This document shows, one piece after another, positions 6,972 through 49,421 of a stretch of DNA of 64,000 nucleotides (position 1 is its first letter; the number at the start of each line of letters is the position of its first letter). Source of the stretch: an uncultured Chloroflexia bacterium (GTDB lineage Bacteria; Chloroflexota; Limnocylindria; Limnocylindrales; CSP1-4); NCBI GenBank assembly GCA_963754485.1, contig CAVWFY010000011.1, positions 156,833-220,832 of the forward strand, in the 5' to 3' direction. The notes beneath the pieces were generated by a model that saw only the letters and a list, made by a program, of their open reading frames with translations, ran no database searches and was not told the DNA's origin. Made by a program: the position numbers and the translations under genes.

Positions 6972-7775
6972 ATGGCCGAGCAGCTCTCCCTCCAGCTCGA
7001 GCCGGCGATGCCGCGCTCCGGCGATGTGGCGCCCATGTGGCCGACCGCCCTCGCCGACCCGTTCGACTCGCCCGACTGGCTGTTCGAGCCCACCTGGGGC
7101 GGGCACCGGGTCCTCGCGTTCGTCGAGCCCGGGGCGACGGCGGGAAGCGGCACGGTGCGGGTCGTGGACGCGCGGGGCACGGAATTCGGGGAGCAGCTCC
7201 CGGAGCTGGCAGGGCTTGCCGTGCGGGTGGCAGCGCGGTCCGCGGTGCTCGACGGGGAGCTCGTCGTGGTGGACCCGCACGGCCGGGCCGACGACGAGGC
7301 CCTCCGCGAGCGCCTGTCCGGCCGGCCGGGACGGCCGGTCGCGTTCCTGGTCTTCGACCTGCTCCACCTCGACGGTCGCTGGCTCCTGGGCCAGGCCCTG
7401 GACAAGCGGCGCGCGGCCCTGCACAGGGTGCTGCGTCCGGGCGACGAGGTGGTCGTGGTGCCCGCGATCACGGGCGAGGGCCGGGCGCTCCACGCAGCCG
7501 TCTCGGCACAGGGGATCGCGGGTGTGCTCGCGCGCCGGCGCACGAGCCCCTACCTGCCCGGCGTCCGCAGCACGCTGTGGCGGTCGATCCTGGCCACGCC
7601 GCCCGGGGAGTCCTCCGCGCCGGAGAAGGCCGGCGCGCCAGGTGAAGGCGCCACGGGCGATGAGCCGGCGGGCGATCCGGCCGCCGCTTCGGCCACCGGC
7701 ACGGCGCCCGTCCTGGCGATGTTCCGGCGCCTCCCCTTCCCCGACGAACCCTCCGAGGACGGGCCGGGAGGCTGA
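6972..7775 (+). CDS. ATP-dependent DNA ligase-like nucleotidyltransferase-domain protein; motif I lysine absent; no OB domain
   Basis: FEPTWGGHR in place of KxDGxR; motif III AVLDGELVVVD and motif IV FLVFDLLHLDG present; 267 aa with a low-complexity tail. Confidence 0.5.
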   Translation: MAEQLSLQLEPAMPRSGDVAPMWPTALADPFDSPDWLFEPTWGGHRVLAFVEPGATAGSGTVRVVDARGTEFGEQLPELAGLAVRVAARSAVLDGELVVVDPHGRADDEALRERLSGRPGRPVAFLVFDLLHLDGRWLLGQALDKRRAALHRVLRPGDEVVVVPAITGEGRALHAAVSAQGIAGVLARRRTSPYLPGVRSTLWRSILATPPGESSAPEKAGAPGEGATGDEPAGDPAAASATGTAPVLAMFRRLPFPDEPSEDGPGG

Positions 7776-9101
7776 TCAGCTCCCGCGGACCGCGTGGAGG
7801 AACGTGCGCACCGTCGGCGGCTGCCCGTACATCAGGACACCGGCCCGGTAGACGCGGATCGCGAGCAGCGTGACCAGGGGCACCGTGGCGATCAGCAGCC
7901 CGAGCGAAAGCGCCAGCTCCCAGGGCTCCACCCGGCCGGTCGCCAGGCGGGCCATCATCACGAACGGGCTCCACAGCGGCACGTAGGACGCGAACTTGAT
8001 GAACCAGGAGGTGCTCCCGGACAGGGCGAGCACGGCGGGCAGGTAGCCCATGATGGCCGGGATCGAGAGCGGCAGGGCGACGATCTGCAGGTCTTCGGGG
8101 CGGCTGAGCAGCGAGCCCGCCCCGGCATACAGAGCCGCGTAGAGCGCGAACCCCAGCACGAAGTAGACGAGGAACGCCGCGATGAGTCCCGGGGACAGGC
8201 CCGCCATCGACGACGCGGCGGTCGGATCCTCGCCCAGCAGCATGTTGCCCAGCTGGCCGGACGCGACCACCATCATCAAGGCGGGCAGGAGGATGAGCGA
8301 CACCTGCGTCAGCCCCGCCAGGCCGATGCCCGCGATCTTGCCGACCACGAGCTGGGGTGCGGTCGCCGCGGAGATCAGCAGCTCCATCACCCGGCTCGCC
8401 TTCTCCGCCACGATCCCGGACGCGACCCACAGCCCGTAGAAGACGAGCGTCAGGAACGACAGCACGACGAACACGATGCCGACGATCCGCCGGCTCGCAT
8501 ACTCCGCGGTGTCGATCGCCTCGCCGCCCCCAGACGCCGCCGCACCGGCGTCCACCACGGCGAACGTCGGGGGCACGAACGGCCGGTCCGCCGCGGGCTG
8601 CGACGCGGTCCAGTCCAGGATTCCCACGGCGAACGACCCGACCTGGAGCAGCTGCGCCCGGTCCTGGCCCAGCCCGCCGACCGTGACCACCCGGAAGTCG
8701 AGCCCCCCTTCCGCGGTGCGCTCGATGAGGACCGCGCCGGCGACCAGCCCATCGCTCACCGCGTCGACGGCCGCGTCCCGGTCATCCATGCGCTCGAACA
8801 GGAAGGTCTTCTGCTCGCCAGCGGTGCTGTCCAGCTGGGCGTTGAGGAACCCGTCCATCACGCCCACGGCCCGCTGGCCCAGGTCCGGGTCCGCCGCCAC
8901 GACGGCCACCCGCGTCACGGTCGCCCGGTCCACGGCGCGGATCGCCAGCGGGATCAGTGCCATGACCATGGCGAGGCCGGCCATCAGGAGGGTCGAGAAC
9001 AGGAAGGCACGGGACCTGACGCGCTCCGTGTACTCCCGGCGCGCGACGAGGCCGACATTACGGGCGAGGGCGCCGCGGCCGGTCGGAGCCTCGTGCGTCA
9101 C
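7776..9101 (-). CDS. ABC-2 type transporter permease
   Basis: Multi-TM C-terminal part of the 926-aa ORF; GTG start at 9099-9101 overlaps the ATPase stop (GTGA). Confidence 0.75.
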   Translation of the reverse strand: MTHEAPTGRGALARNVGLVARREYTERVRSRAFLFSTLLMAGLAMVMALIPLAIRAVDRATVTRVAVVAADPDLGQRAVGVMDGFLNAQLDSTAGEQKTFLFERMDDRDAAVDAVSDGLVAGAVLIERTAEGGLDFRVVTVGGLGQDRAQLLQVGSFAVGILDWTASQPAADRPFVPPTFAVVDAGAAASGGGEAIDTAEYASRRIVGIVFVVLSFLTLVFYGLWVASGIVAEKASRVMELLISAATAPQLVVGKIAGIGLAGLTQVSLILLPALMMVVASGQLGNMLLGEDPTAASSMAGLSPGLIAAFLVYFVLGFALYAALYAGAGSLLSRPEDLQIVALPLSIPAIMGYLPAVLALSGSTSWFIKFASYVPLWSPFVMMARLATGRVEPWELALSLGLLIATVPLVTLLAIRVYRAGVLMYGQPPTVRTFLHAVRGS

Positions 9102-11387: not shown

Positions 11388-13559
11388 ATGGCCACCGTTC
11401 GACCCGCCCCCGGACCTCGTGTCGCAGGCCGCGGTCGACGTCGGGCCGCCCGCGATCAGAAGGGTCCGATCCTCAACCGCGAGCTCTCCTGGATCGAGTT
11501 CAACGCGCGCGTCCTGCACGAGGCTCGCGACACGCGCAACCCGCTCCTGGAGCGCGTGAAGTTCCTCGCGATCTTCGCGTCCAACCTGGACGAGTTCTTC
11601 CAGGTCCGGGTATCCGGCCTGCGGCGCCAGGACCGGTCGCGCAGCGTCCACCACAGCCTCGACGGCCTCACGCCCTCCCAGCAGCTGGACGCTATCCGCG
11701 ACCGTGTCCGGGAGCTCATCGGCGACCACTCCGACATCTGGATGGAGATCCGCGCGGAGCTGGCCGCGGAAGGCGTGCAGATCCACGACTACGACGAGGT
11801 TCCGGAGCACCACGAGACCCTGCGGCGCCGCTTCCACGACGAGATCTTCCCGGTGCTGACACCGCTCGCTGTGGACCCCGGTCATCCGTTCCCCTACATC
11901 AGCACCCTGAGCCTGTCGATCGCCGTCGGCCTGCGCGACCCGGAGACCGGCGAGCGGCGCTTCGCGCGCGTCAAGATCCCGCCGATCCTCCCCCGCCTGT
12001 TCGCCGTGGAACGCGACAGGTTCGTGCTCCTCGACCAGGTCATCGAGGCGAACCTGGACGAGCTGTTCCGGGGCATGGAGATCCTGGAGACGCACCTGTT
12101 CCGGGTGACCCGCGACGCGGACATCGCGATCGAGGAGGACGAGGCCGACGACCTGCTGCTGGCCATCGAGGAGGAGATCCGGCGGCGGCGCTTCGGCGAG
12201 GCCGTCCGCCTCGAGGTGGAGCGCTCCATGCCGGAGCTCACGCGCCAGATCCTGATCAAGGGGACGGGCGTACGGGACGAGGACGCCTTCGAGGTCGCCG
12301 GCATGCTGGATCTCACGGCGCTGTGGCAGTTGGTGAGCCTGGATCGCCCGGATCTCAAGGCCCCGGTCCACAGCCCGGTGATCCCCCAGCGGCTGCTGCC
12401 GCTGGACGAGGACGAGCCCACGGACGTCTTCGCACAGATGCGCGCGGGCGACATCTTCGTCCATCACCCCTACGAGTCGTTCACCGCGTCGACGGAGCGG
12501 TTCATCGACCAGGCCGCGGACGATCCCGAGGTCCTCACGATCAAGCAGACCCTGTACCGGACGTCTGGCCAGTCACCGATCGTGGGCGCACTCATCCGCG
12601 CCGCGGAGGCGGGCAAGCAGGTCGTGGTGCTGGTCGAGATCAAGGCCCGCTTCGACGAGGAGAACAACATCGTCTGGGCCCGCCGCCTCGAGCAGGCCGG
12701 CGCCCACGTCGTGTACGGCCTGGTCGGCCTCAAGACGCACTCCAAGGTGGCCCTGGTGGTGCGGCGGGAGGGCAGCGGCCTCCGCCGCTACATCCACATC
12801 GGCACCGGCAACTACAACGGCAAGACCGCGCGCCTGTACACGGACCTCGGGTTGCTGACCTGTCGCGAGGAGCTTGGCGCGGATGTCACCGACCTGTTCA
12901 ACGTCCTGACCGGCCTGTCCCGCCAGCGCGTCTTCCGTCGTCTGCTCGTCGCCCCGATGACCATGCGCACGCGGTTCATCGAGATGGTGGAGCGCGAGAC
13001 GGCCCACGCGCAAGCCGGCCAACCGGCCCGCATCGTGCTCAAGGTCAACTCGCTGGTGGACGTCCAGGTGATCGAGGCGCTCTACGAGGCCTCGAGGGCC
13101 GGCGTGGAGATCGACCTCATCGTGCGCGGCGCGTGCTGCCTGGTCCCGGGTGTCGAAGGTGTCAGCGAGCGGATCCGCGTCCGTTCGATCATCGGCGAGT
13201 TCCTGGAGCACTCCCGGATCTGGATGTTCAGCAACAGCGGGCGCGCCGAGTGGTACATGGGCTCGGCGGACCTCATGGAGCGCAACCTTGACCGGCGGGT
13301 CGAGGTGGTGACACCGGTCGAGGACCACGAGGCCCAGGCCCGCCTCGCCCGGATCATCGAGGTCCTCCTCGCGGACGACCGCCGGTCGTGGCAGCTGGGG
13401 GCGGACGGGCGGTGGGCACGGACGGAGGTCCTCGAGTCCCGCGAGGGCACGGTGGAGACCTTCGCCGTCCTCAAGGAGGACGCCGCGACCGCGAGCGCGC
13501 TGGCCGACATCCCACGCCGTCCGCACGCGAATGCGGGCTCGATGGATCCTCGGGCATGA
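11388..13559 (+). CDS. ppk: Polyphosphate kinase 1
   Basis: LNRELSWIEFNARVLHEA, FLAIFASNLDEFFQVRV, and two PLD-like HSK motifs; start taken at MATVRPAP. Confidence 0.9.
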   Translation: MATVRPAPGPRVAGRGRRRAARDQKGPILNRELSWIEFNARVLHEARDTRNPLLERVKFLAIFASNLDEFFQVRVSGLRRQDRSRSVHHSLDGLTPSQQLDAIRDRVRELIGDHSDIWMEIRAELAAEGVQIHDYDEVPEHHETLRRRFHDEIFPVLTPLAVDPGHPFPYISTLSLSIAVGLRDPETGERRFARVKIPPILPRLFAVERDRFVLLDQVIEANLDELFRGMEILETHLFRVTRDADIAIEEDEADDLLLAIEEEIRRRRFGEAVRLEVERSMPELTRQILIKGTGVRDEDAFEVAGMLDLTALWQLVSLDRPDLKAPVHSPVIPQRLLPLDEDEPTDVFAQMRAGDIFVHHPYESFTASTERFIDQAADDPEVLTIKQTLYRTSGQSPIVGALIRAAEAGKQVVVLVEIKARFDEENNIVWARRLEQAGAHVVYGLVGLKTHSKVALVVRREGSGLRRYIHIGTGNYNGKTARLYTDLGLLTCREELGADVTDLFNVLTGLSRQRVFRRLLVAPMTMRTRFIEMVERETAHAQAGQPARIVLKVNSLVDVQVIEALYEASRAGVEIDLIVRGACCLVPGVEGVSERIRVRSIIGEFLEHSRIWMFSNSGRAEWYMGSADLMERNLDRRVEVVTPVEDHEAQARLARIIEVLLADDRRSWQLGADGRWARTEVLESREGTVETFAVLKEDAATASALADIPRRPHANAGSMDPRA

Positions 13560-15346
13560 CCGAGGTCCCGGGCGCCGGACCGCTCGAGATCGAGCTGAAG
13601 TACCGCATGACCGATGCCACGACGGGCGATCGTCTGCTGGCCGCCGATGATCTCGCAGGGCTGACAGCTGCCGCCCCCGTCGAGACCGTGGTCCACGAGG
13701 ACCGGTACGTGGACACGCCCGACGGTGCGCTGGCGGCCGCGGGGTACGCGGGGCGGTTCCGCTCGAGCGGCGACGAGACGATCATCACGCTCAAGGGCCT
13801 CCACCGGCAGGACGATGGCGGGGCCGCCCATCGGCGCGAGGAGCTGGAGGGTCCCGCGGACCTCGAGACGGCGGCGCCGGCCTGGCCGGAGTCCGCGGCG
13901 CGCGACGCGGTGATCTCGATCGTCGGCGAGGCGACGCTCGGCGAGCTGGTCCGCGTCCGCCAGGTGCGGCGCAAGCGGGACTATGCTGCGAACGGCACCA
14001 TCGTGGAGCTGTCCGTGGACGACGTGGAGGTCGTGATGGGCGACCGCGTGATCGAGCGGTTCGCGGAGCTCGAGGTCGAGCTGCGCCAGGGTGACGAGGC
14101 GGCCCTGGAGCCACTGGTGGATCTCCTGTCCGAGATCGAGGAGCTCGTTCCCGCCGAGACGTCCAAGCTCGAACGCGCCATGGAGGCCGTGCGCCGTGAG
14201 GCGGAGGCGGGCGACGGCGAGCCCGACGAGCCCGAGAAGGACGAGCCGGATGGTGGCGTGACCGGGATCCCGGTCATGGACCGTCCCGCCGATGCCGACA
14301 CCGTTGCCGGGGATGCCGAGCTCCACGCCGACGCCACCGAGGCCGCCGAGGCCGCCGAGACCGTTGAGCCCGAGGCGGACGCCGAACCAGTCCCGGAACC
14401 GCCGCGGATCATCGTCCCCAAGACACCCGGGGTCCTCGCGGACGACCACCTGGCCGAGGCCGGCCGCAAGGTCCTGCGCTTCCACCTGGCCCGAATGATC
14501 ACGCGCGAGCCCGGCACCCGCGTCGGCAAGGACCCGGAGGAGCTGCACGGGATGCGCGTCGCCACCCGCCGCCAGCGGGCGGCGTGGCGGGTCTTCGGGG
14601 ACGCCTTCGACCTCGATCGCACCGACCGTTACCGGCGCCGGCTCAAGCTGGTCGCGGCAGACCTGGGCGGCGTGCGGGATCTCGACGTCCTGATCGAGGC
14701 CGGCGAGAAGTACCAGGGCCGGCAGTCCGCCGTCGAGGCCAGGGCCTTCGAGCCGCTCCTGCAGTCGTGGCGCGTCCAGCGTGAAACCGCCCGCGAGGTC
14801 CTGATCAAGGAGCTCGACAGCAACCGGTACCGCAAGTGGCTCGACGCCTACATCGAGTTCGCCCAGGCGGACGGCATCGGCGCCCGCCAGGTCGGACCCA
14901 CGGATCCGCACCGCGTCCGGGACACGATGCCCTCGCGCATCTGGACCGCCTACGAGGTCGTGCGCGCCTACGAGCCCGTGATGCGCTGGGCCGACGTCAC
15001 GACGCTCCACGACCTGCGCATCGCCGCCAAGTGGCTCCGCTACACGCTGGAGTTCGTGCGCGAGGCGCTCGGTCGCGATGCCGGGCCCGTGATCGAGAAG
15101 GTGGTCGCCCTGCAGGACCACCTGGGCTGGCTCCACGACGCCGACGTCGCCGCCAACCTCGCGCGGGGGTATCTGGTGGAGCACGCGGGATCCCTGTCCG
15201 AGGGGGAGAGCGCCGCCATCGGGCGGTACCTCGTGGACCGCGAGCGGGAGCTGGCCCGCCTGCGGCGGACGGTCGGTCCGCCGTGGCGCGGCGTTGCAAG
15301 CCTCGCATTCCGGCGCTCGCTCGGACGAGTGGTCGCGGGACTCTAG
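13556..15346 (+). CDS. CYTH-CHAD domain protein (triphosphate tunnel metalloenzyme plus CHAD)
   Basis: EIELKY CYTH start, an acidic linker, and a CHAD region (HGMRVATRRQRAAWRVF); ATGA overlap with the ppk1 stop. Confidence 0.8.
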   Translation: MTEVPGAGPLEIELKYRMTDATTGDRLLAADDLAGLTAAAPVETVVHEDRYVDTPDGALAAAGYAGRFRSSGDETIITLKGLHRQDDGGAAHRREELEGPADLETAAPAWPESAARDAVISIVGEATLGELVRVRQVRRKRDYAANGTIVELSVDDVEVVMGDRVIERFAELEVELRQGDEAALEPLVDLLSEIEELVPAETSKLERAMEAVRREAEAGDGEPDEPEKDEPDGGVTGIPVMDRPADADTVAGDAELHADATEAAEAAETVEPEADAEPVPEPPRIIVPKTPGVLADDHLAEAGRKVLRFHLARMITREPGTRVGKDPEELHGMRVATRRQRAAWRVFGDAFDLDRTDRYRRRLKLVAADLGGVRDLDVLIEAGEKYQGRQSAVEARAFEPLLQSWRVQRETAREVLIKELDSNRYRKWLDAYIEFAQADGIGARQVGPTDPHRVRDTMPSRIWTAYEVVRAYEPVMRWADVTTLHDLRIAAKWLRYTLEFVREALGRDAGPVIEKVVALQDHLGWLHDADVAANLARGYLVEHAGSLSEGESAAIGRYLVDRERELARLRRTVGPPWRGVASLAFRRSLGRVVAGL

Positions 15347-15397: not shown

Positions 15398-16605
15398 CTA
15401 CTCGATCGGCCAGTCCTCCTCGGACCAGCCGCGGACCAGCACCCGGAGACGGTCACGCCAGGCCGGACCCGCTGCCGCGGCGGCGATCACGAGTCCCTCG
15501 CGGATCCCCTCTTCGGACACGGTCAGGCGCTCCGCGGCGTAACGCTCCAGGATCGCGTCCACGATGATCGCCCCGGCCGGCAGGATCCGTGCGCGGGCCG
15601 GTCGGACGAGGTGCCGCTCGGCAGCCTCAAGGCTCCGCTCGACGGTCAGCATCGCGAGCGCCACCGTCAGCCGCCGTCGGGTGAGGACGTGATCCAGGGC
15701 GGTCGCCGGGAGCAGCCGGAGCAGGTTCGCCGCCGTCCCGCCAACCGCAACGATGTCGCCGGGATGGATCGCGGGAGCATCGGCCAGGATCTCCCGGACG
15801 CGAACCCTGACCGCCTCGAGGTCCGCCAGCGTCGGCGGATCGCCGCGCACCAGGTCACGAGTCAGGCGCGCAGCGCCCAGCGGGAGTCCCGTTGCGTGCA
15901 CCTCGCCCGCCGCACTGACGACGACGAACTCGGAGCTGCCTCCGCCGATGTCGACGACGAGCAGATTGGTCTCGATGGGCCGGCCCTTGGTCACGCCCAG
16001 GAGCGTGAGCAGGCCCTCCTCGTCGTGGTCGACAACATGCAGCGGGACGCGGGCGCGCACCTCGACCGCCGAGACGACTGCCGCCGTGTCCTCCGCACGC
16101 CTCAACGGTTCGGTGCCCACGATCGTGATCCGCTCCGCGCCGAGCTGGCGGGCGGTGTCGGCATAGGCGACGAGCGACGCCACGAGCTCCTCCCGGGCAT
16201 CGATGCCCAGATGCCCGTCAGCCGCGACCCGATCGCCAAGGCCCAGGAACACGGACTCGTCAAGGAGCGGCTCCACGCTGTGGCCACCGACCGCCGCGAC
16301 GAGGAGATGGACGCTGGTCGACCCGACGTCAATGGCGGCCCCGATGACGGCCCCGGCCGCGATCTCGATCTTGGCCGCCGCGGGCTCGGGTTCGGGTGAC
16401 GGCTCGATGGGCTCGGGTTCGGGTGGCGGCTCGGGTGACGGCTCGGGTTCTGGCTCAGGTTCTGGTTCAGGTTCAGGTTCTGGTTCTGGTTCAGGTGGCC
16501 TCAGCTCGGGCGCCGGTTCCGGCTCGGCGGCCTCCGGCTCAGCGGCCTCCGGCTCAGCGGCCTCCGGCTCAGGTTCTGGCTCGGGTTCTGGCTCAGCTGG
16601 CCTCC
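15398..16605 (-). CDS. ppx: Ppx/GppA exopolyphosphatase domain; no in-frame start codon near the domain; probably continuous with the lysine-rich ORF upstream after correcting one indel
   Basis: [15 protein letters not shown] followed by DIGGGSSEF; upstream in the same frame only (EP)n repeats and no ATG/GTG/TTG; the rest of the ORF frame (R/P-rich) is a shadow. Confidence 0.75.
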
Positions 16606-16680
16606 GGCTCAGGCTCGGGCTCGGGCTCCACCAAGGGCTCAGGCGCCGGTTCAGGTTCGGGCTCGGGCTCGACGGCCGAA
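16381..16680. repeat. Imperfect GAACCN hexanucleotide (Glu-Pro codon) repeat tract, about 300 bp
   Basis: ggctcgggttcgggt... repeats on the plus strand encode (EP)n on the minus strand; the EP reading phase jumps by one near 16593-16605. Confidence 0.75.
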
Positions 16681-17129
16681 TCCGACGGCACGCGATCAAC
16701 GATGTGGGACGCCGCAGGCTCCCCCACCTGGCGAACGAGGCTGGCGAGCTCCTCGAGCACCGTCCCGGCCGCCGCCGCCAATGCCGTGGAGCGGCCGACT
16801 TCTGCATCTCCCTGCTTCCGGTGTCGCGTCGCCCTGCCGCCCTCCGTATCGGGGGACGTCTTCGGAGCCGCCGCCGCGGACTCCTTCGCGGACTCCTTCG
16901 TGCTCCTCGCGGTGGCCTTCTTGGGCGCCTTCGCGGCCTTCTTGGGCGCCTTCGCGGCCTTCTTCGCGGACTTCCGGGCGAGCTTCTCCGCCTTGTCGGC
17001 GGCCTTCTTCGCGGCCTTCTTCGCGGCCTTGCGGGCCTTCTTGCCGGTCTTGGGACCGCCTGCCAGCGCACCGGCGGCTGACCCTGTGACGCCGGTCGTG
17101 ACCTCGATGTCCCCGGCGTCCGGCATCAC
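16593..17129 (-). CDS. Lysine/alanine-rich histone-H1-like protein; probable N-terminal part of Ppx
   Basis: [42 protein letters not shown], then [16 protein letters not shown] and an EP repeat that ends at a TGA inside the repeat tract; the R/P-rich overlapping frame uses rare AGA/AGG codons and is the shadow. Confidence 0.55.
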
Positions 17130-17256
17130 GTTCCTCCTGACTGAGCTGGGGCACCCGCGACGGAGCGCGCTGTGGCCACCAGTCTGCCGCAGGCGGGAGC
17201 GTCGCGCTGACGGGTACCGCGCGTTGACAACACGTTAACCGGCGTCGAACGAGTCG

Positions 17257-18036
17257 TTGACGGGTGACGCCGATGATCCGCTCGTGGTCGCCTTGCCGCC
17301 TTCCAGTCCCGAACCCAGCCCCGACCAGGTCGCCTGCTTCGCCGGACGGGAGCGGACCGCCTGGCTCGTGCTGGCCAATGGCGGGCCCGCGGTCGCCCTC
17401 CCGGAGCTGGCCGCTACCAGGGCGGTCAATGTCACTGCCGATCCCCGACGCTTCCGGGACATCCTGCTCGCGGAACGACCGAGGATCGTGGTGGTCTGCC
17501 AGCCACCGGCTGGTGACGAGGACCTGGGCCTCGTGGCGTCCGAACGACGCCGTCGACCCCGGCTTCGCGCTCTGCACCTTGCACCCCCGGGGGCCGTCGC
17601 CGACCGCATCGCCGCCCTTGCCCGGGGCTTCGACGACGCGCTCACCACGACGACCACGAGCGGGGAGTTGGCCGCGCGTCTGGAACTGCTCGAGGCTCGG
17701 GCTCGGGAACGTCCCGTGCCCGGCTCCACGCTGCCGGTCGCGCACGGCGTTGAGCTGGACCTGGTCGCTCACGAGGTCCGGCGCGATGCGCTCGCCGTCC
17801 ACCTCCGACCGAAGGAGTTCGGCCTGCTGGCGCTCATGGCGTCCCACCCGGGCCGTGCATACACCCGGCAGGAATTGCTCGAGCGCGTGTGGGGGAAGGG
17901 GCACGAGAGTGGCGTCCGCACGGTGGACGTCCACGTCCGCTGGCTCCGCACGAAGATCGAGAGCGATCCGGAGCGGCCAGCCCATCTCGTGACCGTGCGC
18001 GGCGTCGGCTACCGCCTGGATCCGCCCTTGCGTTAA
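17257..18036 (+). CDS. OmpR/PhoB-family winged-helix regulator with degenerate (pseudo-)receiver domain
   Basis: C-terminal trans_reg_C (LRPKEFGLLALMASHPGRAYTRQELLERVWG...VRTVDVHVRWLRTKIE...VRGVGYRL); the N-terminal 140 aa lack the DD pocket and the phospho-Asp context. Confidence 0.7.
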   Translation: MTGDADDPLVVALPPSSPEPSPDQVACFAGRERTAWLVLANGGPAVALPELAATRAVNVTADPRRFRDILLAERPRIVVVCQPPAGDEDLGLVASERRRRPRLRALHLAPPGAVADRIAALARGFDDALTTTTTSGELAARLELLEARARERPVPGSTLPVAHGVELDLVAHEVRRDALAVHLRPKEFGLLALMASHPGRAYTRQELLERVWGKGHESGVRTVDVHVRWLRTKIESDPERPAHLVTVRGVGYRLDPPLR

Positions 18037-18152
18037 CCGGACCTTAACACCTCGCACACGACCTGTTGACAGCCCGGCCCGAACTTCGGCTCTGTAGAAG
18101 ACCAGAGGCGTCGCACGCGCTCGGGGCGCGACGCCAGACAAGGAGAACCTCC

Positions 18153-19178
18153 GTGACGCTCGCATCAACCAAGCGCATCGGCGCACTCGCCCTGGCTGCG
18201 ACGGTCCTCGTCGCAGCGTGCGGCAGCTCGACGGCCACGTCCGCCCCCGCCAGCGGCGCTCCTGCCGGTGGTGGCGTGACCGGCGCCATCAACGTGTCCG
18301 GCTCGTCCACCGTCGAGCCGATCTCCACGGGTGTGGCCGAGGCGTTCGCGGCCGCCAACGCAGAGTTCACCTACACCGTCGAGGGCCCCGGAACCGGCGA
18401 CGGGTTCAAGAAGTTCTGCGCGGGCGAGACCGACATCTCCGACGCCTCCCGCAAGATCAAGGACGAGGAGGCCAAGGCCTGCGCCGACGCCGGCATCGAG
18501 TATGTCGAGCTCAAGGTCGCGATCGACGGCATGTCCGTCCTGACCTCGGTGAACAACAAGGCGGTCGCCTGCCTCAGCCTCGCTGATCTATACGCGCTGA
18601 TCGGACCCGAGTCCACCGGGTTCGCCAAGTGGAGTGACGCCGCGGCGCTTGGCAAGGAGCTCGGGTCCAACACCGTCTTCCCCGACGCAGACCTCTCCAT
18701 CACCGGGCCCGGCGAGGAGTCCGGCACGTTCGACAGCTTCGTCGAGCTCGCGATCGCGAAGACCGCCGAGAAGCGTGGCCAGGAACCCAATACCCGCCCC
18801 GACTACACCGCCTCGTCCAACGACAATGCGATCATCGACGGGATCTCGGGCAGCGACACGTCGCTCGGCTGGGTGGGCTTCGCCTTCGCCGAGGAGAACA
18901 GGGACAAGGTCAGCGAGATCCAGGTCTCCAAGGACGTCAACGGGACCTGCGTCGCCCCGACTCCCGAGACCATCACCGACGGCTCGTACCCGCTCTCCCG
19001 CGACCTCTTCATCTACGTCAACAAGGCCAAGGCAGCCGCGAACCCCGCCGTCGTCGCCTACGTCGACTACTACCTGGCCGACGGGACGATCGACTCGGTC
19101 CTCCAGACCGTCCCCTACGTCGGCCTCACGGCCGAGGCGCTCGCCGAGACGCGGGCGACCTGGGACGCGTCGAAGTAG
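18153..19178 (+). CDS. pstS: Phosphate ABC transporter substrate-binding lipoprotein PstS
   Basis: AGGAGA RBS at 18141-18146, GTG start, lipobox LVAAC, PstS-like body. Confidence 0.9.
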   Translation: MTLASTKRIGALALAATVLVAACGSSTATSAPASGAPAGGGVTGAINVSGSSTVEPISTGVAEAFAAANAEFTYTVEGPGTGDGFKKFCAGETDISDASRKIKDEEAKACADAGIEYVELKVAIDGMSVLTSVNNKAVACLSLADLYALIGPESTGFAKWSDAAALGKELGSNTVFPDADLSITGPGEESGTFDSFVELAIAKTAEKRGQEPNTRPDYTASSNDNAIIDGISGSDTSLGWVGFAFAEENRDKVSEIQVSKDVNGTCVAPTPETITDGSYPLSRDLFIYVNKAKAAANPAVVAYVDYYLADGTIDSVLQTVPYVGLTAEALAETRATWDASK

Positions 19179-19289: not shown

Positions 19290-20219
19290 ATGGCCCAGGC
19301 AAGTCCAGCCCTCCCGGCCGGGATGTCGCTGCGCGGCAGCGCCCGGCGGCGACGTCGCGAGACCATCGTCCGCGGCCTGTTCCTCGCCGCGTCGCTGGTC
19401 ACCATCCTGATCAGCTTGTTCATCATCGAAACGGTCCTTGTCGAGGCGATCAGCTTCCTGTCGCAGATCGATCTCGGCCAGCTGTTCGGCATCGGGTGGT
19501 TCCCACGCCGCGGCATCTTCGACGTCTCGACGATCGTGATCGGGACCCTCATCGTCACGGCGATCGCCATGGTGATCGCGACGCCGGTCGGCATCTTCTC
19601 GGCGATCTACCTCTCCGAGTACGCCACACCCCGCTTCCGGCGGACCGTCAAGCCGGTCCTCGAGGTCCTCGCGGGCATCCCCAGCGTCGTCCTGGGGTTC
19701 TTCGCCCTGACGCTGCTCACGCCGTCGGTCATCAGGCCGCTGTTCGAGGAGGCTAACTCGTTCAACCTCGCGGCCGCGGGGCTGGGCGTCGGAATCCTGT
19801 CGATCCCCCTGGTCGCCTCCGTCGCCGAGGACGCGATGCGCGCGGTGCCCCAGAACCTGCGCGAGGCTTCCTACGGCCTCGGCGCCCGCAAGATCACGAC
19901 GTCACTCCGGGTGGTCTTCCCGGCCGCGATCTCGGGCATCGTGGCCGCGCTCATGCTCGCGACCAGCCGCGCGATCGGCGAGACCATGGTGGTGGCGGTC
20001 GCCGCTGGTGCTCCCCAGGCGCGGACGCTCAACCCACTCGACCCGGGCGGCACGATGACCTCCGCCATGGTCGGGCTGGCCACGGGCAGCGACCAGGTGA
20101 CCGGCAACAGTGCGGCCTTCCAGAGCCTGTTCTTCATCGGGCTCCTGCTGTTCCTCATCACGCTCGTCCTGAACGTCGTGGGCGACGCGTTCGTCCGGCG
20201 CGCCCGGCAGAAGTATTAG
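19290..20219 (+). CDS. pstC: Phosphate ABC transporter permease PstC
   Basis: Six TM helices, EAA-like loop, and position after pstS. Confidence 0.9.
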   Translation: MAQASPALPAGMSLRGSARRRRRETIVRGLFLAASLVTILISLFIIETVLVEAISFLSQIDLGQLFGIGWFPRRGIFDVSTIVIGTLIVTAIAMVIATPVGIFSAIYLSEYATPRFRRTVKPVLEVLAGIPSVVLGFFALTLLTPSVIRPLFEEANSFNLAAAGLGVGILSIPLVASVAEDAMRAVPQNLREASYGLGARKITTSLRVVFPAAISGIVAALMLATSRAIGETMVVAVAAGAPQARTLNPLDPGGTMTSAMVGLATGSDQVTGNSAAFQSLFFIGLLLFLITLVLNVVGDAFVRRARQKY

Positions 20220-20229
20220 GAGCTCGACG

Positions 20230-21171
20230 ATGTCCTCCATCGGCTCCTCCGCCGCGGCAACAAGCGCGAGCGTGCGTGCAGGGATCACGGGCGCCGGGCG
20301 GCGTGACGTCTGGGGCTACGTCTTCCAGGCCTTGCTCCTCGGAAGCCTGCTGGTCTCGCTCGCGATCCTGTTCGTCCTGATCGCGGACGTCCTGGGCCGC
20401 GCGGTCCCGGTCTTCGCGGACCGCGGGCTCGGGTTCCTCACCTCGCCCCTGTCGTCCAACCCCGCCAAGGCCGGGATCGTCCAGGGCCTCGTCGGCACGG
20501 CAATCCTGGCAGCCATCGTGGCGCTCCTGGCCTTCCCCTTCGGCCTGGCCACCGCGATCTACCTCGAGGAATACGCCGCCGACACCAAGCTCACCCGCTT
20601 CATCCAGATCAATATCCGCAACCTCGCGGGCGTCCCGTCGGTGGTCTACGGCCTGTTGGGCCTGTCGGTCTTCGTCGCGTTCATGAACTCAGTGGACGGA
20701 GGTGGGTCCGGGCGCAACATCCTGGCCGGTGGCATCACGCTGGCTGTGCTGGTGCTGCCGATCGTGATCATCACCTCCATCGAAGCGTTGCGGTCCGTGC
20801 CGAACACCATCAGGGAGGCGGGCTACGGCGTGGGGGCCTCGCGCTGGGAGGTGACGCGCCAGCTCGTGCTTCCCTCGGCAGCACCCGGAATCCTGACCGG
20901 CACGGTGCTCGCGCTCTCCCGGGCGCTGGGCGAGACCGCGCCGCTGATCCTGGTCGGGGCCGTCCTCGGATCGTTCTCCGGGCTGTCCATCTCGACCTTG
21001 TTCACCGGCAGCTACACCGCCCTGCCGGTCATCGTGTACGACTGGGCCCGCAAGCCGCAGGAGGCCTTCCGGGCCGACGCCGCCGCAGCCATCGTCGTCC
21101 TGCTCATCATTACGATCGTCGCGAACGTGATCGCGATCCTCCTGCGCAGTCGCTACGAGCGGGCCTGGTGA
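20230..21171 (+). CDS. pstA: Phosphate ABC transporter permease PstA
   Basis: Permease homology and operon position. Confidence 0.9.
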
Positions 21172-22076
21172 TGCCCGACACCACCGGAGAGCCCATGACC
21201 GCCCCGACCATATTCGTCCCCGAGTCCCCCTCGCCGGCTGCGCCCGGACCGGCAGTGCCAATCCACGTCGAGCGCCCGTCGGAGGGCGACGGTGCGGTCG
21301 CGTCCCCCAGGGGCGAGGACGTCATCCGCATCGAGAACCTGGACTTCTACTACTCCAAGTTCCGCGCGGTGAAGGGCATCAGCATCGCGTTCGAAGCGCG
21401 CAAGATCACCGCCCTCATCGGTCCGTCTGGCTGCGGCAAGTCCACCCTGCTCCGGACCATCAACCGGATGAACGACCTGATCACGGGGACCCGCGTCGAG
21501 GGCAAGGTGCTCTACCACGATGTGGACCTCTATGCGAAGGACGTGGACGCGGTCGAGGTCCGCCGGCGGATCGGGATGGTGTTCCAGAAGGCGAACCCCT
21601 TCCCGAAGTCGATCTACGACAACGTCGCGTTCGGCCCCCGGATCAACGGCTACAAGGGCAACATGGACGAGCTCGTCGAGTCGAGCCTGCTCCGTGCCGC
21701 CCTCTGGGACGATGTGAAGGACAAGCTCAAGCAGTCCGGCCTGGCCCTCTCGGGCGGCCAGCAGCAGCGTCTGTGCATCGCGCGGGCCATCGCGACCAGC
21801 CCGGATGTCATCCTGATGGACGAGCCGTGCTCCGCACTGGACCCGCGCTCCACGCTCCAGATCGAGGAGCTGATGTTCGAGCTCAAGGAGCAGTACACGA
21901 TCGTCATCGTGACCCACAACATGCAGCAGGCCGCCCGCGCGTCGGACTACACGGTGTTCCTGAACATGGCCGACGATCGGGCGGGATACGTCGTTGAAGA
22001 GGGGCCGACGCTGGGCATCTTCACGAACCCCCAGAACCAGCTCACCGAGGATTACGTCTCCGGCCGGTTCGGCTGA
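21168..22076 (+). CDS. pstB: Phosphate ABC transporter ATP-binding protein PstB
   Basis: [31 protein letters not shown]; the start overlaps the pstA stop (GTGA). Confidence 0.9.
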
Positions 22077-22095: not shown

Positions 22096-22869
22096 ATGGA
22101 CAACCAGCACGGCTCCGGTCCGCACGTGGCGGACGCCTTCGGCGGCAGCTTCGACGATCTCTCGCCGGCCCAACCCGTCGAAGCGCCGGGTCCCGCCTTC
22201 CCGCCCACCCACGGGATCCGCAGCGCCTACGACCGCGAGATCGCGGAGGTCAAGGACAACGTCCTGCGAATGGGCTCCATGGTGGAGGCGCAGATCCATG
22301 CGGCGATCGGGTCGCTCGTGGCGCACGACGCCGATGCCGCCACGCAGGTGATCCTCGACGACCGGCAGATCAACGAGGTCCAGCGCAAGGCCACGGCGAT
22401 GATCGCCGCCGTGATCGCAACCCAGAACCCCGTGGCCCGCGACCTGCGCTACCTGCTGACCCTGGACCACGTGAGCTACGAGCTGGAGCGCATGGGCGAC
22501 CACGCTGGCTCCGTGGCCAAGCAGGCACGCAAGCTGGCCCCCTACCCGCCCCTCAAGGACTACGTGCTGCTGCCGCAGCTGGGCGAGCGGGTGGCGGACC
22601 TGGTGCAGGGCATCATCCGGGCCCTCGTGGACGTCGACCAGGACCGGGCGCGCGAGGTGGCCAAGCTGGACGACGAGGTGGACGAGCTGTACCACCGCAT
22701 CTTCAGCGAGGTGCTGGAGCTGATGCGGACCGACCCGGCCAACGTGGATCCCGGGACGCGGATCCTGTTCGCCGCCCACTACCTCGAGCGCATCGGCGAC
22801 CGCGTCACCAACATCGCCGAGGACATCGTGTTCCTCGCCTCGGGCGAGGTAGAGGACCTGAACCAGTGA
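22096..22869 (+). CDS. phoU: Phosphate signalling complex protein PhoU
   Basis: Two PhoU repeats (ELERMGDHAGSVAK and ERIGDRVTNIAEDIVF); start taken at MDNQHGS. Confidence 0.85.
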   Translation: MDNQHGSGPHVADAFGGSFDDLSPAQPVEAPGPAFPPTHGIRSAYDREIAEVKDNVLRMGSMVEAQIHAAIGSLVAHDADAATQVILDDRQINEVQRKATAMIAAVIATQNPVARDLRYLLTLDHVSYELERMGDHAGSVAKQARKLAPYPPLKDYVLLPQLGERVADLVQGIIRALVDVDQDRAREVAKLDDEVDELYHRIFSEVLELMRTDPANVDPGTRILFAAHYLERIGDRVTNIAEDIVFLASGEVEDLNQ

Positions 22870-23378
22870 GCCAGCCGCAAGACCGGGACGACCATCACGA
22901 TCACGGCGCGTTCCACGGCGAGGCGGCCCCCGTCCGGGTCCTCGTCGTGTGCACCGGCAACAGCGCCCGCTCGATCCTCGGCGAGGCGCTCCTGCGACAC
23001 CTCGGTGGCGACCGGATCGAGGCCCACTCCGCGGGCACGCACCCGGGCCCGGTCAACCCGCTGAGCCTGCGCGTCCTCGAGGAGGCCGGCATTTCGACGG
23101 AGGGGCTTCGCTCCAAGTCCATCAACGAGTACCTGGGCCAGAGGTTCGACTACGTGATCACCGTGTGCGACGACGCCCGCGACGCGTGCCCGGTCTTCCC
23201 GGGTGTCCACGAGTCCATGCACTGGGGGTTTCCGGACCCGGCGAAGGCCACAGGAACAGACGAGGTCCGGCTCGCGGCGTTCCGCTCCGTGCTGACGGGC
23301 CTCGGACAGCGGATCCACCAGTTCCTCCCCCTGGCGGAGCGCTACGCTGCCCAGCGAACACCCATCGAGCTCGCATGA
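22866..23378 (+). CDS. Arsenate reductase ArsC / low-molecular-weight protein-tyrosine-phosphatase family enzyme
   Basis: P-loop VLVVCTGNSARS (CX5R) plus downstream Cys pair (ITVCDDARDACPVF); ATGA overlap with phoU. Confidence 0.75.
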   Translation: MSQPQDRDDHHDHGAFHGEAAPVRVLVVCTGNSARSILGEALLRHLGGDRIEAHSAGTHPGPVNPLSLRVLEEAGISTEGLRSKSINEYLGQRFDYVITVCDDARDACPVFPGVHESMHWGFPDPAKATGTDEVRLAAFRSVLTGLGQRIHQFLPLAERYAAQRTPIELA

Positions 23379-23857
23379 CCACGCTGTTCCTCCTGCGCCA
23401 CGCGCACGCCGGCGATCCCGAGCGCTGGACCGGCGACGACGACCTGCGTCCGCTCACCGACAAGGGCCGGCGCCAGGCGGAGCGGGTCGGGAACCTGCTC
23501 GCCGCCGCGGACGAGGCACCGGATCTCGTGGTCACCTCCCCGCTGGCACGCGCCGATGAGACCGCGCGGATCGTGGCGGCGGCGCTGGACGTGCCGGTCG
23601 TGGTGGACCGGCGGCTCGTCGGATCGCTGTACGCGGAGGTGGTCCAGGACGTCCTCGCGGCCGCCGGCCCGGCGGAGCGGCCATGCATCGTCGGCCACGA
23701 CCCGGACTTCTCATCCCTGCTCGGCGAACTGATCGGCGTGGCGGCCGTCCCCATGCGCAAGGGAGCCCTGGCGCGGGTGGACTTCGAGGGGCACGTGCGC
23801 AGCGGACGCGGGACGCTGCGGTACCTGGTGCCGCCGGAGATCCTGTCGGGACGCTAG
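23375..23857 (+). CDS. SixA-like histidine phosphatase (phosphoglycerate-mutase superfamily)
   Basis: LLRHAHA catalytic motif, 160 aa; ATGA overlap with the preceding gene. Confidence 0.7.
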   Translation: MTTLFLLRHAHAGDPERWTGDDDLRPLTDKGRRQAERVGNLLAAADEAPDLVVTSPLARADETARIVAAALDVPVVVDRRLVGSLYAEVVQDVLAAAGPAERPCIVGHDPDFSSLLGELIGVAAVPMRKGALARVDFEGHVRSGRGTLRYLVPPEILSGR

Positions 23858-34251: not shown

Positions 34252-35472
34252 TCAGGCGGTGGCCGGCGGCACGGACAGGGGCGGCACGGACAGGGGCGAC
34301 GCGGGCACGAGGATGGGGATGGTCACGGTGAAGGTGGACCCGGCGCCCTCATCGGACTCCACCGCGATCTGGCCGGCGTGGCCCTCCACCACGTGGCGGG
34401 CGATGGCGAGGCCGAGTCCAGTACCGCCGCCCCGCATGCGCGCCCGATCGGCCTTGTAGAACCGCTCGAAGATCCGCGCCCTGTCTGCACGCTTGATGCC
34501 GATGCCGTGGTCCGTGACGCTGAGCTCGATGACGTCGCCCGCGCGCCGGACCGCGACCCGGACCTCCCCGCCGTCTGGGCTGAACTTGATGGCGTTGTGG
34601 ACGAGGTTGACCACGACCTGGCCGAGGCGGGCCTCGTCGCCGCGCACGGTCGGCAGGTCCCGCTCGGTCTCCGTCACGAGCGTGACCCCGCTGCGCTCGG
34701 CGAAGGGGCGGAGGCGCTCGGCGGATGCGGCGGCGAGCTGCGCGAGATCCACGTCGTCCAGGAGGCGCAGCCGGGAGCCACCCTCCATCCGGGCGAGGTC
34801 CAGCATCTCGTTGACCATCTGGACGATATGGCCCGTCTCCACCTCGATGAGCGCGATGCGCTCGCGCATCCGGGGCGGGACGTCGGCGACCTCCGCCTCC
34901 CGGGCGAGGGTCTCGGCGAGCAGGGTGACAGTGGACAGCGGGGTGCGCAGCTCGTGGCCCAGGTTGTCGATGAACTCCGTCCGGATCTGCTGGAGCCGGC
35001 GCAGCTCGGTGACGTCCTCGAGAACCAGGACGAGGTCGTCCGGCGCCAGGCGGTGGGCGCTCACGACGAGAATGCGCGGCTCCGCGGTCCCGGCCCGGTG
35101 CTCCACGGTCGTGGCGCCGCCGACGGGCACGGCGTCCAGCGCCGCCTCGACGCGGACGTCCAGGAACGCCTCCATGACGCTCCGACCCGGCAGGCGCCCG
35201 GAGACGCCGAGCAGAGCGTGAGCCCGCTCGTTCGCGGCGCTGATCCGGTGATCGGTGCCGACGTGCAGGACGCCGACCGGCAGCAGGCCGATGTCGCGCT
35301 GAGACATCGCGCCGGGATCCGTGCCCGCGGCGGCTGCGGGCGCGACTGCCGCTTCCGCCGTCGCAGCCTCCACGATCCGGTCCAGCTCGTCGGTCCGGCG
35401 CCGGATCACGAGCAGCGCGGCCCCCAGCGCGACGGCCAGGCCGATGACGGCGATCCAGGACAGCCCTTCCAT
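34252..35472 (-). CDS. Two-component sensor histidine kinase (TM plus PAS-like plus HisKA plus HATPase_c); no cognate regulator adjacent
   Basis: H-box LGHELRTPL, N-box LVHNAIKFS, G-boxes DHGIGI / GTGLGLAI. Confidence 0.85.
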   Translation of the reverse strand: MEGLSWIAVIGLAVALGAALLVIRRRTDELDRIVEAATAEAAVAPAAAAGTDPGAMSQRDIGLLPVGVLHVGTDHRISAANERAHALLGVSGRLPGRSVMEAFLDVRVEAALDAVPVGGATTVEHRAGTAEPRILVVSAHRLAPDDLVLVLEDVTELRRLQQIRTEFIDNLGHELRTPLSTVTLLAETLAREAEVADVPPRMRERIALIEVETGHIVQMVNEMLDLARMEGGSRLRLLDDVDLAQLAAASAERLRPFAERSGVTLVTETERDLPTVRGDEARLGQVVVNLVHNAIKFSPDGGEVRVAVRRAGDVIELSVTDHGIGIKRADRARIFERFYKADRARMRGGGTGLGLAIARHVVEGHAGQIAVESDEGAGSTFTVTIPILVPASPLSVPPLSVPPATA

Positions 35473-41988: not shown

Positions 41989-42240
41989 ATGCTGGAGCCT
42001 GCGCCCCTGGGGCGGTTCCGGCCAACGGCCGATCGGCACAGGCGCGGGCCGCGGATGGCGGGGTCGAACCGGGCACCCCGGCGGCGCACTAGGGTCCGAA
42101 CCGCCCCCGGCCGCACAGCCACGCGTTAACGTCCCATGAACGCCGGTATGCTCTGGGGATCGCGGCACTGCGCGATCGGCCCGTCCCCGCCGCTCGTGGA
42201 ACCCCCTCGTCTCAACACGCATTCGAGGCGCACCGGCATC

Positions 42241-43951: not shown

Positions 43952-44647
43952 TCAGGCAGGGCGGCGGAACACGTAGCCGACGCCGCGCACCGTCTGCAGC
44001 AGCTCCGGTGCGGCCGGGTCCTGCTCGAGCTCCGCACGGAGCCAGTGCACGTGCACGTCCACGGTTCGCGACTCGCCGGCGTAGTCGTAGCCCCAGACCT
44101 TCTCCAGGAGCTGGTCGCGGGTGAACACCTGCCCCGGGTTGCGCACGAGGAACGCGAGCAGCTCGAACGCCTTGGGCTTGATGGGCACCGCCTGGCCGTC
44201 ACGCAGGACACGGTGACCGGCGAGGTCCACCTGGACCTGGCCCAGATCCACGAACGGCGGCGGGGCCTGCGTCGCGGCCAGCTGCTCGGCGCGGCGGAAG
44301 ATCGCGCGGATGCGGGCGGTGAGCTCACGCAGGCTGAAGGGCTTGGTCACGTAGTCGTCCGCGCCCAGCTCCAGGCCCACGACCTTGTCCACCTCGCCGT
44401 CGCGGGCGGTCAGCATGATGATCGGGACCTGCGACTCCGCGCGGAGAATCCGGCAAACCTCGACACCGGACAGCTCCGGCAGCATGAGGTCGAGGAGCAC
44501 GAGGTCCGGCTGGTCGGCACGGAAGCGGATCAGCGCCTCGCGTCCGTTTGCGGCGGGGATGGCCCGGTAGCCCTCGAGCTCGAGCGCCTCAACGAGGGTC
44601 TCGCGCAGGGTCTTCTCGTCGTCCACGACGAGGATGGTGCGGATCAT
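43952..44647 (-). CDS. OmpR-family response regulator (PhoP/RegX3-like) with a canonical receiver
   Basis: ILVVDDE, LVLLDLMLP, LTAR, K-containing loop and trans_reg_C. Confidence 0.9.
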   Translation of the reverse strand: MIRTILVVDDEKTLRETLVEALELEGYRAIPAANGREALIRFRADQPDLVLLDLMLPELSGVEVCRILRAESQVPIIMLTARDGEVDKVVGLELGADDYVTKPFSLRELTARIRAIFRRAEQLAATQAPPPFVDLGQVQVDLAGHRVLRDGQAVPIKPKAFELLAFLVRNPGQVFTRDQLLEKVWGYDYAGESRTVDVHVHWLRAELEQDPAAPELLQTVRGVGYVFRRPA

Positions 44648-44718
44648 GTGTCTTCACCATGCTGCCCGCCAGTTAACGACGCGTTCACGGCGTGTTCACG
44701 TCCTGTTCCACCGCCTGT

Positions 44719-49235: not shown

Positions 49236-49421
49236 CGCGCCGAGCATAGCGCGACGGGGGCCGCGCCAGCCATGCCGCGCACGTCAGGCCACGCGACCCG
49301 ACCGGAGCAGGCGACGCGACCCGCCCCGGGCCGCGTCGCCGCGCTAGGATTGGGTCTCGACCGGCGCGTGCGTGCCGCCCGGGCGGCGCACCGCCCGTCA
49401 TGATCAACGCGAGGGATCCCC

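Follow-up and report, generated by a model that had tools for sequence, protein, structure and literature searches.

A conserved family of OmpR/PhoB-type regulators with an aspartate-less receiver adjoins the pst operon and its PHO boxes in Limnocylindria

OmpR-type regulators with aspartate-less receivers (ALRs) are a known class of 609 members, about 2% of the receiver-OmpR (REC-OmpR) architectures (PMC4395418). HP1043 (HsrA), ChxR, GlnR, CosR, RitR and NblR share a two-domain layout in which a degenerate receiver keeps its fold, and HP1043, ChxR and GlnR form phosphorylation-free dimers through the alpha4-beta5-alpha5 face (PMC3960148, PMC12632262). How bacterial pseudo-receivers (PsRs) are switched on and off is largely unknown according to a 2025 analysis (PMC12632262). 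In Streptomyces, another regulator whose DNA-binding domain (DBD) is of the OmpR type binds the pstS and phoRP promoters and competes there with PhoP (PMC4415409). Herein we describe a regulator with the same two-domain layout, encoded in a stretch of 64,000 nucleotides (contig CAVWFY010000011.1, positions 156,833 to 220,832; “the window”) from an uncultured bacterium of the Chloroflexota class Limnocylindria, where its gene (open reading frame (ORF) 17257-18036, plus strand) lies between two arrays of PHO boxes and directly upstream of pstSCAB-phoU. It belongs to a new family within the known class of aspartate-less OmpR-type regulators. The reading that we favour, by somewhat more than an even chance, is that it is a PhoB/RegX3-derived paralogue that works independently of phosphorylation, recognizes PHO boxes and modulates the promoters of the Pho regulon. 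Limnocylindria is a widespread soil and freshwater class without cultured members, and the locus suggests an extra layer in its phosphate regulation.

The N-terminal part of the regulator (residues 32-150, 17350..17706; residue numbers follow the 259-aa version read from TTG 17257) is a pseudo-receiver that keeps the receiver fold and has lost the phospho-chemistry. AlphaFold2 (AF2), run with a 30-sequence family alignment, modelled residues 36-150 as a (beta-alpha)5 fold (pLDDT of 82-96 per block), in which strands beta1 to beta5 span residues 36-39, 57-60, 77-81, 104-109 and 127-130, and helices alpha1 to alpha5 span 44-51, 63-73, 87-99, 114-122 and 135-150. Foldseek aligned ~226-235 columns of the protein to OmpR/PhoB regulators, with the atypical GlnR (8hih), HP1043 (2hqr), CosR (8uvk) and RitR (5u8k) among the neighbours. 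By sequence, the full-length NCBIfam regulator models (MtrA, PhoB, OmpR, TctD) and the PDB sequences of MtrA, RegX3 and KdpE, of which MtrA and RegX3 matched best, could be aligned back to residues ~56-97. The Pfam receiver model PF00072 (Response_reg), to which an earlier note on this DNA had proposed to align the protein, gave no match even at E<=1. A custom receiver HMM trained on 53 canonical regulators from sister Chloroflexota classes scored the canonical response regulator (RR) of the same window at 168.5 bits and our regulator at 19.1 bits (family range 14-24), and its alignment places C81, A109 and T131 at the positions of the phospho-acceptor Asp, the Thr and the Lys, respectively. 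The switch Tyr is replaced by A128, as read from the DDyvtK/DDALTT block and a MAFFT alignment, and the acidic-pair positions after beta1 hold A40-N41. The beta3 end is indeed the string IVVVCQPP that the earlier note had singled out (residues 77-84), with C81 at the acceptor position.

These losses extend to the members of the family that were aligned. Across 30 members the acceptor position is occupied by Ala (14), Cys (9), Ser (3), Thr (2), Gly (1) or Val (1) and never by Asp or Glu, the Lys position holds neither Lys nor Arg in any of them, the first acidic position (residue 40) is Ala in 30/30 with position 41 variable, the switch Tyr position is Ala in 28/30, and the Thr position is Ala in 25, Thr in three and Ser in two. 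When 24 distant members (29-56% identity) were added to the alignment, neither Asp nor Lys appeared at the phospho-chemistry positions in any of the 54 sequences. Receiver fold or homology without the phosphotransfer residues, above all the acceptor Asp, is how an aspartate-less receiver is defined (PMC4395418, PMC12632262), and this is what the domain presents. Because the acidic pair, Asp, Thr, switch Tyr and Lys are all gone, the regulator is probably not switchable by a histidine kinase (HK) or by acetyl-phosphate at the canonical site. An alternative start that would supply a canonical receiver N-terminus or a conserved Asp set is excluded, since an in-frame TAA stands upstream at 17236-17238 and all elements from beta1 to alpha5 are encoded within the ORF as it is. 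The earlier note's picture of a receiver-like N-terminus lacking the acidic pocket and an acceptor Asp therefore stands, together with the sequence-level parts of its proposal of an atypical, probably phosphorylation-independent OmpR-family regulator; phosphorylation independence itself is something we infer from the sequence.

The comparison of homologues indicates that the regulator represents a conserved, discrete family under purifying selection, and not a one-off or decayed gene. On average, pairs of members are 65% identical in the pseudo-receiver and 75% in the winged helix-turn-helix (wHTH), whereas the linker reaches 40% and the N-terminal tail (residues 1-31, disordered in the AF2 model) 21%, and it is the difference between pseudo-receiver and tail that argues for purifying selection on the domain. 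New invariant residues have arisen near the former active site (A40, G43, [Q/E]82-P83-P84, and A-P-P after beta4) and at R97 and R100, and the family has a signature of its own in A40, G43, x-[QE]-P-P-A after beta3, A-P-P after beta4, and GFDDAL. Arg-rich motifs (DPRRFRD, AERPR, ERRRRxxLR) are conserved on surfaces that are usually variable in receivers. Searched exhaustively with just the pseudo-receiver as query, a set of 1.84 billion cluster representatives yielded 91 relatives and no canonical receivers; the 24 distant members that were aligned out of these 91 keep the x-P-P-A and GFD(D/E)AL signatures with P83 invariant, and none of the 24 is an Asp-retaining intermediate. The best 120 database relatives of the regulator share 59-97% identity with it along most of the protein, PF00486 is the sole domain that each of them carries, and the named ones among them are Candidatus Limnocylindrales, Chloroflexota. 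The family occurs in Chloroflexota, mostly in Limnocylindria. In their source databases, several members go by the name “response regulator RegX3” or “alkaline phosphatase synthesis response regulator PhoP” despite having none of the residues for receiver phosphorylation; calling these proteins PhoP/RegX3 response regulators is a systematic mis-annotation, and such names should be avoided.

The C-terminal part (residues 158-254, 17728..18018) is an OmpR/PhoB winged-helix DBD, canonical as the earlier note had it. PF00486 (Trans_reg_C) matched residues 181-254 at 89.7 bits against a cutoff of 26.2 and was the sole Pfam domain found in the protein. AF2 modelled the winged helix-turn-helix fold with its recognition helix and C-terminal hairpin (E158-182, H185-196, H204-212, H220-234, E244-247 and E251-254), and Foldseek superposed it on the DBDs of YycF, VicR and PhoB with TM values of 0.80-0.92. 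The recognition helix is RTVDVHVRWLRTKIE, and the transactivation loop is KGHESGV. With respect to the 5' end of the gene, the ORF claimed at 17257-18036 is real, and it is its TTG start that is probably wrong. GTG 17284 is the likelier start (17284..18036, 250 aa), as TTG 17257 falls within the fourth unit of the upstream PHO-box array and residues 1-9 show no conservation among homologues; the protein would then open with MVALPPS, and the homologues are mostly 250 aa long and start with MVxxPP. TTG 17293 is a possible start as well.

The regulator shares its recognition helix and wing with the canonical PhoB-type regulators of the phylum. The recognition-helix consensus RTVDVHVRWLR.KIE.dP..P and the wing T.RGvGYR are common to the family and to the canonical group (RTVDVHVRWLRsKiEpdP.rP and TvRGvGYRL in the former, RTVDVHVRWLReKIE.dP..P and TiRGvGYrf in the latter). 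The Trp in the recognition helix of both groups sits at the position of Arg201 in E. coli PhoB, in a numbering that agrees with PMC4888885. Since helix and wing are the same in both groups, the simplest expectation is that both read the same box, and the regulator most likely binds GTTAAC-type PHO boxes at 11-bp spacing.

Such boxes are present on both sides of the gene. The upstream array (17223..17261) reads GTTGAC / GTTAAC / TCGAAC / GTTGAC, and the pstS array (18032..18070) reads GTTAAC / CTTAAC / GCACAC / GTTGAC, both with 11-bp spacing; in the latter, the first unit overlaps the regulator stop codon and the last overlaps a TTGACA -35-like hexamer. PHO boxes consist of 11-nt direct-repeat units (PMC4415409); the arrays in the window fit this definition and resemble the cyanobacterial SphR box CTTAACCT (PMC1906773). 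A two-unit pattern had two matches in the 64 kb, where 0.01 were expected, and with one mismatch allowed a third site appeared before the canonical RR gene. This third array (44661..44710, minus strand; TGGAAC / GTGAAC / GTGAAC / GTTAAC on the coding strand) lies ~24 nt before the ATG, and a four-unit PHO box of its own implies autoregulation of the canonical RR. Four-unit arrays scoring >=16/24 were found at these three places only. A further PHO-like site at 49030 has two units only, lies inside ORF 48099-49247 (minus strand) and was taken as chance. Across the family loci (the window included), an array of >=16/24 lies upstream of the regulator gene in 23/25 and on the pstS side in 19/25, against a background mode of 10. 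Arrays of (G/C)TTAAC units also stand upstream of pstS in sister classes that lack the regulator family, and the boxes are therefore ancestral PhoB sites. The upstream array sits in a divergent intergenic region and could also control the ppx unit on the other side.

A further feature shared with PhoB is the dimer face. R117, L121, G124, D126, D127, E137 and R141, which align with PhoB R91, L95, G98, D100, D101, E111 and R115, are each at least 90% conserved in the family. In PhoB, R91 and E111' form a salt bridge across the dimer (PMC4888885), and the rescue of R115D by D101R identified D101-R115 as a charge pair (PMC4511772). Since these interface residues are conserved, the sequences point to a retained alpha4-beta5-alpha5 dimerisation, and we would expect the regulator to dimerise in the phosphorylation-free manner of HP1043, ChxR and GlnR. 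The transactivation loop, which contacts RNA polymerase (RNAP) in PhoB and OmpR (PMC3960148), has changed in its character: the seven residues are Gly/Ser-rich and neutral in the family (for instance KGHESGV and SGTGSGA; 0.5 acidic residues, net charge -0.13), whereas they are aromatic and acidic in the canonical RRs (YDFAGDT, HDYIGDV; 1.75 acidic residues, net charge -1.7). In the mechanism that we propose, the regulator gene would belong to the Pho regulon and be transcribed from a PHO-box promoter of its own, and its product would dimerise without phosphorylation, occupy PHO boxes and modulate the transcription of pstSCAB-phoU that depends on phosphorylated PhoB (PhoB~P), and possibly that of the divergent ppx unit and of phoB. 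Because the loop that contacts RNAP is without acidic and aromatic character, the regulator would more probably act as a brake, a competitor or a basal-state occupant than as a second PhoB-like activator.

A phosphorylatable counterpart is encoded in the same window. The canonical RegX3/PhoB-type RR (43952..44647, minus strand; PF00072 104.6 bits, PF00486 103.5 bits, best PDB match RegX3 with 228.7 bits), which the earlier note had placed 26 kb away, lies 26.7 kb from the regulator gene, is its closest relative within the window and served as our positive control. It is presumed to be the true PhoB, and the pst-linked RRs of the sister classes are 47-56% identical to it and less like the regulator. 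Its gene adjoins no kinase. It does adjoin a PitA-type low-affinity phosphate transporter (42136-43245, plus strand) and a PhoU_div/DUF47 gene (43313-43927, plus strand). The kinase that had been noticed at 34252-35472 (minus strand) proved to be a PhoR-like PAS-HisKA-HATPase HK whose best NCBIfam matches are PnpS (246 bits) and PhoR (240.2 bits), both under their cutoffs. It is linked to neither regulator gene (8.5 kb from the canonical RR, 16 kb from the pst cluster) and is 35-43% identical to the kinases beside PhoB-type RRs in the sister classes, and 57-59% to kinases near the pst cluster in two family loci (L018 and L022). The kinase gene stands alone beside a DnaJ-domain gene (35499-36620). 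With kinase, canonical RR and regulator all present in the window, the lineage has PhoR, PhoB and an extra paralogue.

Downstream of the regulator, pstS, pstC, pstA, pstB and phoU follow directly on the plus strand, in agreement with the arrangement first described. The phosphate-binding lipoprotein gene pstS (18154..19178; PBP_like_2 105.6 bits, TIGR02136 203.1 bits) probably starts at GTG 18154, with an RBS (AGGAGA) at 18141 and the lipobox LVAAC. It is followed by pstC (19290-20219), pstA (20230-21171) and pstB (21168-22076), identified by two BPD_transp_1 matches, ABC_tran and synteny, and by phoU (22096..22869; PhoU domain 131.1 bits in two stretches, and synteny), for which ATG 22096 is the probable start although the mechanical ORF begins at 21994. 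The operon ends 3' with a thioredoxin-type ArsC-like low-molecular-weight (LMW) phosphatase (22866..23378; LMWPc 72.5 bits, TIGR02691 101.3 bits, under its cutoff) with a CTGNSARS P-loop, and such a gene comes after phoU in about a dozen family loci, which suggests that arsenate detoxification is coupled to Pst uptake. At the locus L083, a MerR-LMWPc fusion lies directly upstream of the regulator. The ORF at 22949-23857 (plus strand), in its part 23350-23857 beyond the ArsC-like gene, resembles a SixA/histidine-phosphatase-type protein (RHAHAG motif). A consensus scan of the stretch from the regulator to pstS, which is uninformative for this high-GC phylum, found neither a sigma-70 promoter nor an intrinsic terminator, and comparison of the intergenic regions with Rfam gave nothing at E<=1. 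The pstS leader contains an inverted repeat (GGCGUCGC...GCGACGCC, 18107-18135) immediately before the RBS AGGAGA; the hairpin that it could form (~18107-18135, -24.7 kcal/mol) was no better than shuffled sequence (z = -1.37).

On the other side of the regulator lie a CYTH-CHAD fusion gene (13388-15346, plus strand; Pfam CHAD and CYTH), the core of a Ppx/GppA exopolyphosphatase gene, ppx (15398 to ~16400, minus strand; Pfam Ppx-GppA), and a Lys/Ala-rich ORF of 178 aa that ends in a PE-repeat tail (16593-17129, minus strand). Most family loci have this ORF in the same position and orientation, with the ppx core on one side and the regulator on the other. The mechanical “Ppx” ORF (15398-17071) begins with a long R/P-rich N-terminus, which is probably an out-of-frame shadow of this gene. 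Being polycationic and encoded near ppx and CYTH-CHAD, the Lys/Ala-rich product could be a polyphosphate-binding or granule protein. The order CYTH-CHAD(+), ppx(-), Lys/Ala-rich ORF(-), regulator(+), pstS-C-A-B, phoU and ArsC-like phosphatase was conserved when ~24 family loci from reference genomes were compared, and as CYTH-CHAD and ppx are conserved just upstream of the regulator-pst unit, the ~10-kb block constitutes a phosphate/polyphosphate island. Of the 28 loci that reach downstream, 27 have the regulator directly before pstSCAB(-phoU), the exception being L014. Even at L081 and L083, whose regulators are among the most divergent of the family, pstS-C-A-B still follow directly. At L081, a PhoU_div (DUF47) gene (1080-1700) directly precedes the regulator. 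No kinase adjoins the regulator in the window, and a kinase-like gene was found nearby in only three of the loci examined: a weakly kinase-like ORF (7333-7998) between regulator and pstC in L014 and, in L018 and L022, a PhoR-like kinase where the pst cluster ends. In the sister classes (Dehalococcoidia, Anaerolineales), by comparison, a canonical RR+HK pair flanks the pst operon, mostly upstream and in two loci (L025, L028) downstream of phoU, which bears out the view that the regulator occupies the place where a PhoB/PhoP would be expected.

Several observations weigh against our favoured reading. The co-occurrence of regulator and canonical PhoB was seen in this window only. The boxes, as ancestral PhoB sites, would be expected at these promoters regardless of the regulator, whose own binding to them we infer. 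Throughout the OmpR/PhoB family the transactivation loop varies (PMC3960148, PMC4773095), and the remodelled loop may make a different RNAP contact rather than none. The conservation of the alpha4-beta5-alpha5 face fits a homodimer and a heterodimer equally, the AF2 model (pTM = 0.51) does not fix the mutual placement of the two domains, and the Arg-rich alpha2 and alpha3 surfaces (DPRRFRD, ERRRR) are left unexplained.

These surfaces lead to a different possibility, attractive in view of the polyphosphate neighbours but unlikely in our judgement, namely that the regulator is the main phosphate-responsive activator of pst and is switched by a non-phosphoryl signal that bypasses a HK, such as contact of PhoU/PstB with the pseudo-receiver or non-covalent binding of phosphate or polyphosphate to the basic residues that stand in for the acidic pocket and run along alpha2 and alpha3. 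Its place directly 5' of pstSCAB-phoU in nearly every locus examined would suit such a role, as would the polyphosphate neighbours (CYTH-CHAD, ppx and the polycationic ORF), the Arg-rich motifs DPRRFRD, AERPR and ERRRRxxLR on normally variable receiver surfaces, and the complete loss of the acidic pocket, whose residues are often swapped for basic ones in the ALR survey (PMC4395418). Yet distant members keep the Arg motifs only to a moderate degree, PhoB-type activators have a different transactivation loop, and the same window encodes a complete canonical set, in which a PAS-bearing PhoR-like kinase accompanies a PhoB-type RR that is itself preceded by a PHO box. The narrower idea that the pseudo-receiver is itself the phosphate sensor, its arginines (DPRRFRD, ERRRR) binding phosphate or polyphosphate (polyP) non-covalently or docking PhoU/PstB, we consider quite improbable; if it were true, a transcription factor would read Pst status or the polyP pool directly without a HK, in parallel to PhoR-PhoB and competing at the same PHO boxes.

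The dimer face also bears on whether the regulator acts solely as a heterodimer partner of phosphorylated PhoB, altering its selectivity or activity through alpha4-beta5-alpha5. The equivalents of PhoB R91, D101, E111 and R115 are kept in both the regulator and the canonical RR, their recognition helices match, multi-unit PHO boxes could hold mixed dimers, and WhiI-BldM provides a precedent for a heterodimer with an atypical RR; however, the sequence data do not separate hetero- from homodimerisation, interface conservation throughout the family is as expected for a self-complementary homodimer, and the two genes are 26 kb apart and not co-transcribed, so we hold this to be unlikely. Control by covalent modification at a non-canonical residue (Cys81, as in a redox or Cys-type ALR; Ser/Thr phosphorylation in the Thr-rich beta5-alpha5 loop TTTTTS; or an acidic mimic beside the lost Asp) has some appeal for the window protein, which has Cys at the acceptor position and a five-Thr run after beta5, given that Cys-type ALRs have been described (PMC4395418), as has the redox sensor RitR (Foldseek match 5u8k), and that six of the 30 members carry Glu at D+1. 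It is very unlikely all the same, because Cys81 occurs in only 9/30 members, with Ala commoner, which rules it out as a conserved redox or Cys-ALR site, and because the Thr run is unconserved (T131 in 21/30, T132 in 9/30); D+1 is Gln in 24/30. Finally, a canonical RR+HK pair flanking pst in the sister classes, together with the loss of every catalytic residue, could make the regulator look like a decaying, non-functional remnant of a phoB once beside pst. Conservation throughout the family effectively refutes this: the ORF is intact in nearly all of ~28 loci and in the 91 cluster representatives (the few loci with split matches resemble assembly frameshifts), the pseudo-receiver is far better conserved than the tail (65% vs 21%), P83, P84, A40, G43, R97 and R100 are newly invariant, and the AF2 fold is confident.

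If the regulator does act at PHO boxes, the phosphate regulation of Limnocylindria would have a conserved third component besides PhoR-PhoB and PhoU. What is distinctive is the setting, in which a gene between PHO boxes encodes a paralogue with the same recognition helix as the canonical PhoB. The family offers a tractable test case for pseudo-receivers, in that the likely output consists of three short PHO-box promoters, above all that of pstS, the genome also encodes the ancestral phosphorylatable paralogue, whose identical recognition helix permits side-by-side comparison, and it is clear throughout the family what has been lost (Asp, Thr, Tyr, Lys) and what has been gained (Q/E-P-P, A-P-P, Arg-rich helices).

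Compared with PhoB, PhoP, RegX3 and SphR, the regulator has the same OmpR/PhoB winged helix, with a recognition helix that follows the consensus of Chloroflexota PhoB-type RRs, lies likewise beside pstSCAB-phoU and 11-bp-unit PHO boxes of the SphR type, and keeps the salt-bridge residues of alpha4-beta5-alpha5. It differs in lacking the acceptor Asp, acidic pair, Thr, Lys, switch Tyr and PF00072 match, in a Gly/Ser-rich, neutral loop where the PhoB type is acidic and aromatic, and in having a separate canonical PhoB-type RR in the same genome. It falls far below the PhoB equivalog models (TIGR02154, 95.5 bits vs a cutoff of 296.2; NF007546, 70.8 vs 471), and the cognate PhoR-type kinase that marks a PhoB is not adjacent, nor is there an acceptor Asp for it to act on. 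With the named atypical regulators there is a likeness of layout and no sequence-family tie: a search with the domain alone finds the regulator's own family only, and PF21695 (GlnR_1st) had no match to the regulator at E<=1, a model that is searchable here as the window's canonical RR matches it weakly. GlnR keeps the Asp, so the loss in the regulator is more complete, and we have not found a tie to the Pho regulon, or a canonical paralogue with a shared recognition helix, described for any of these proteins; nor did two ALR/PsR surveys or a targeted literature search yield a description of a pst-linked or PhoB-derived pseudo-receiver. In Streptomyces, WhiI is reportedly an atypical, non-phosphorylatable RR that cooperates with the related BldM as a heterodimer; these are, however, NarL/FixJ-type proteins, whereas our regulator is of the OmpR/PhoB type and a heterodimer is hypothetical. 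AfsR and GlnR at Streptomyces PHO-box promoters are a functional analogy only: AfsR is a large SARP/ATPase under Ser/Thr kinases with a recognition sequence of its own, whereas the regulator described here is a paralogue of PhoB that has kept the recognition helix and whose gene belongs to the pst locus.

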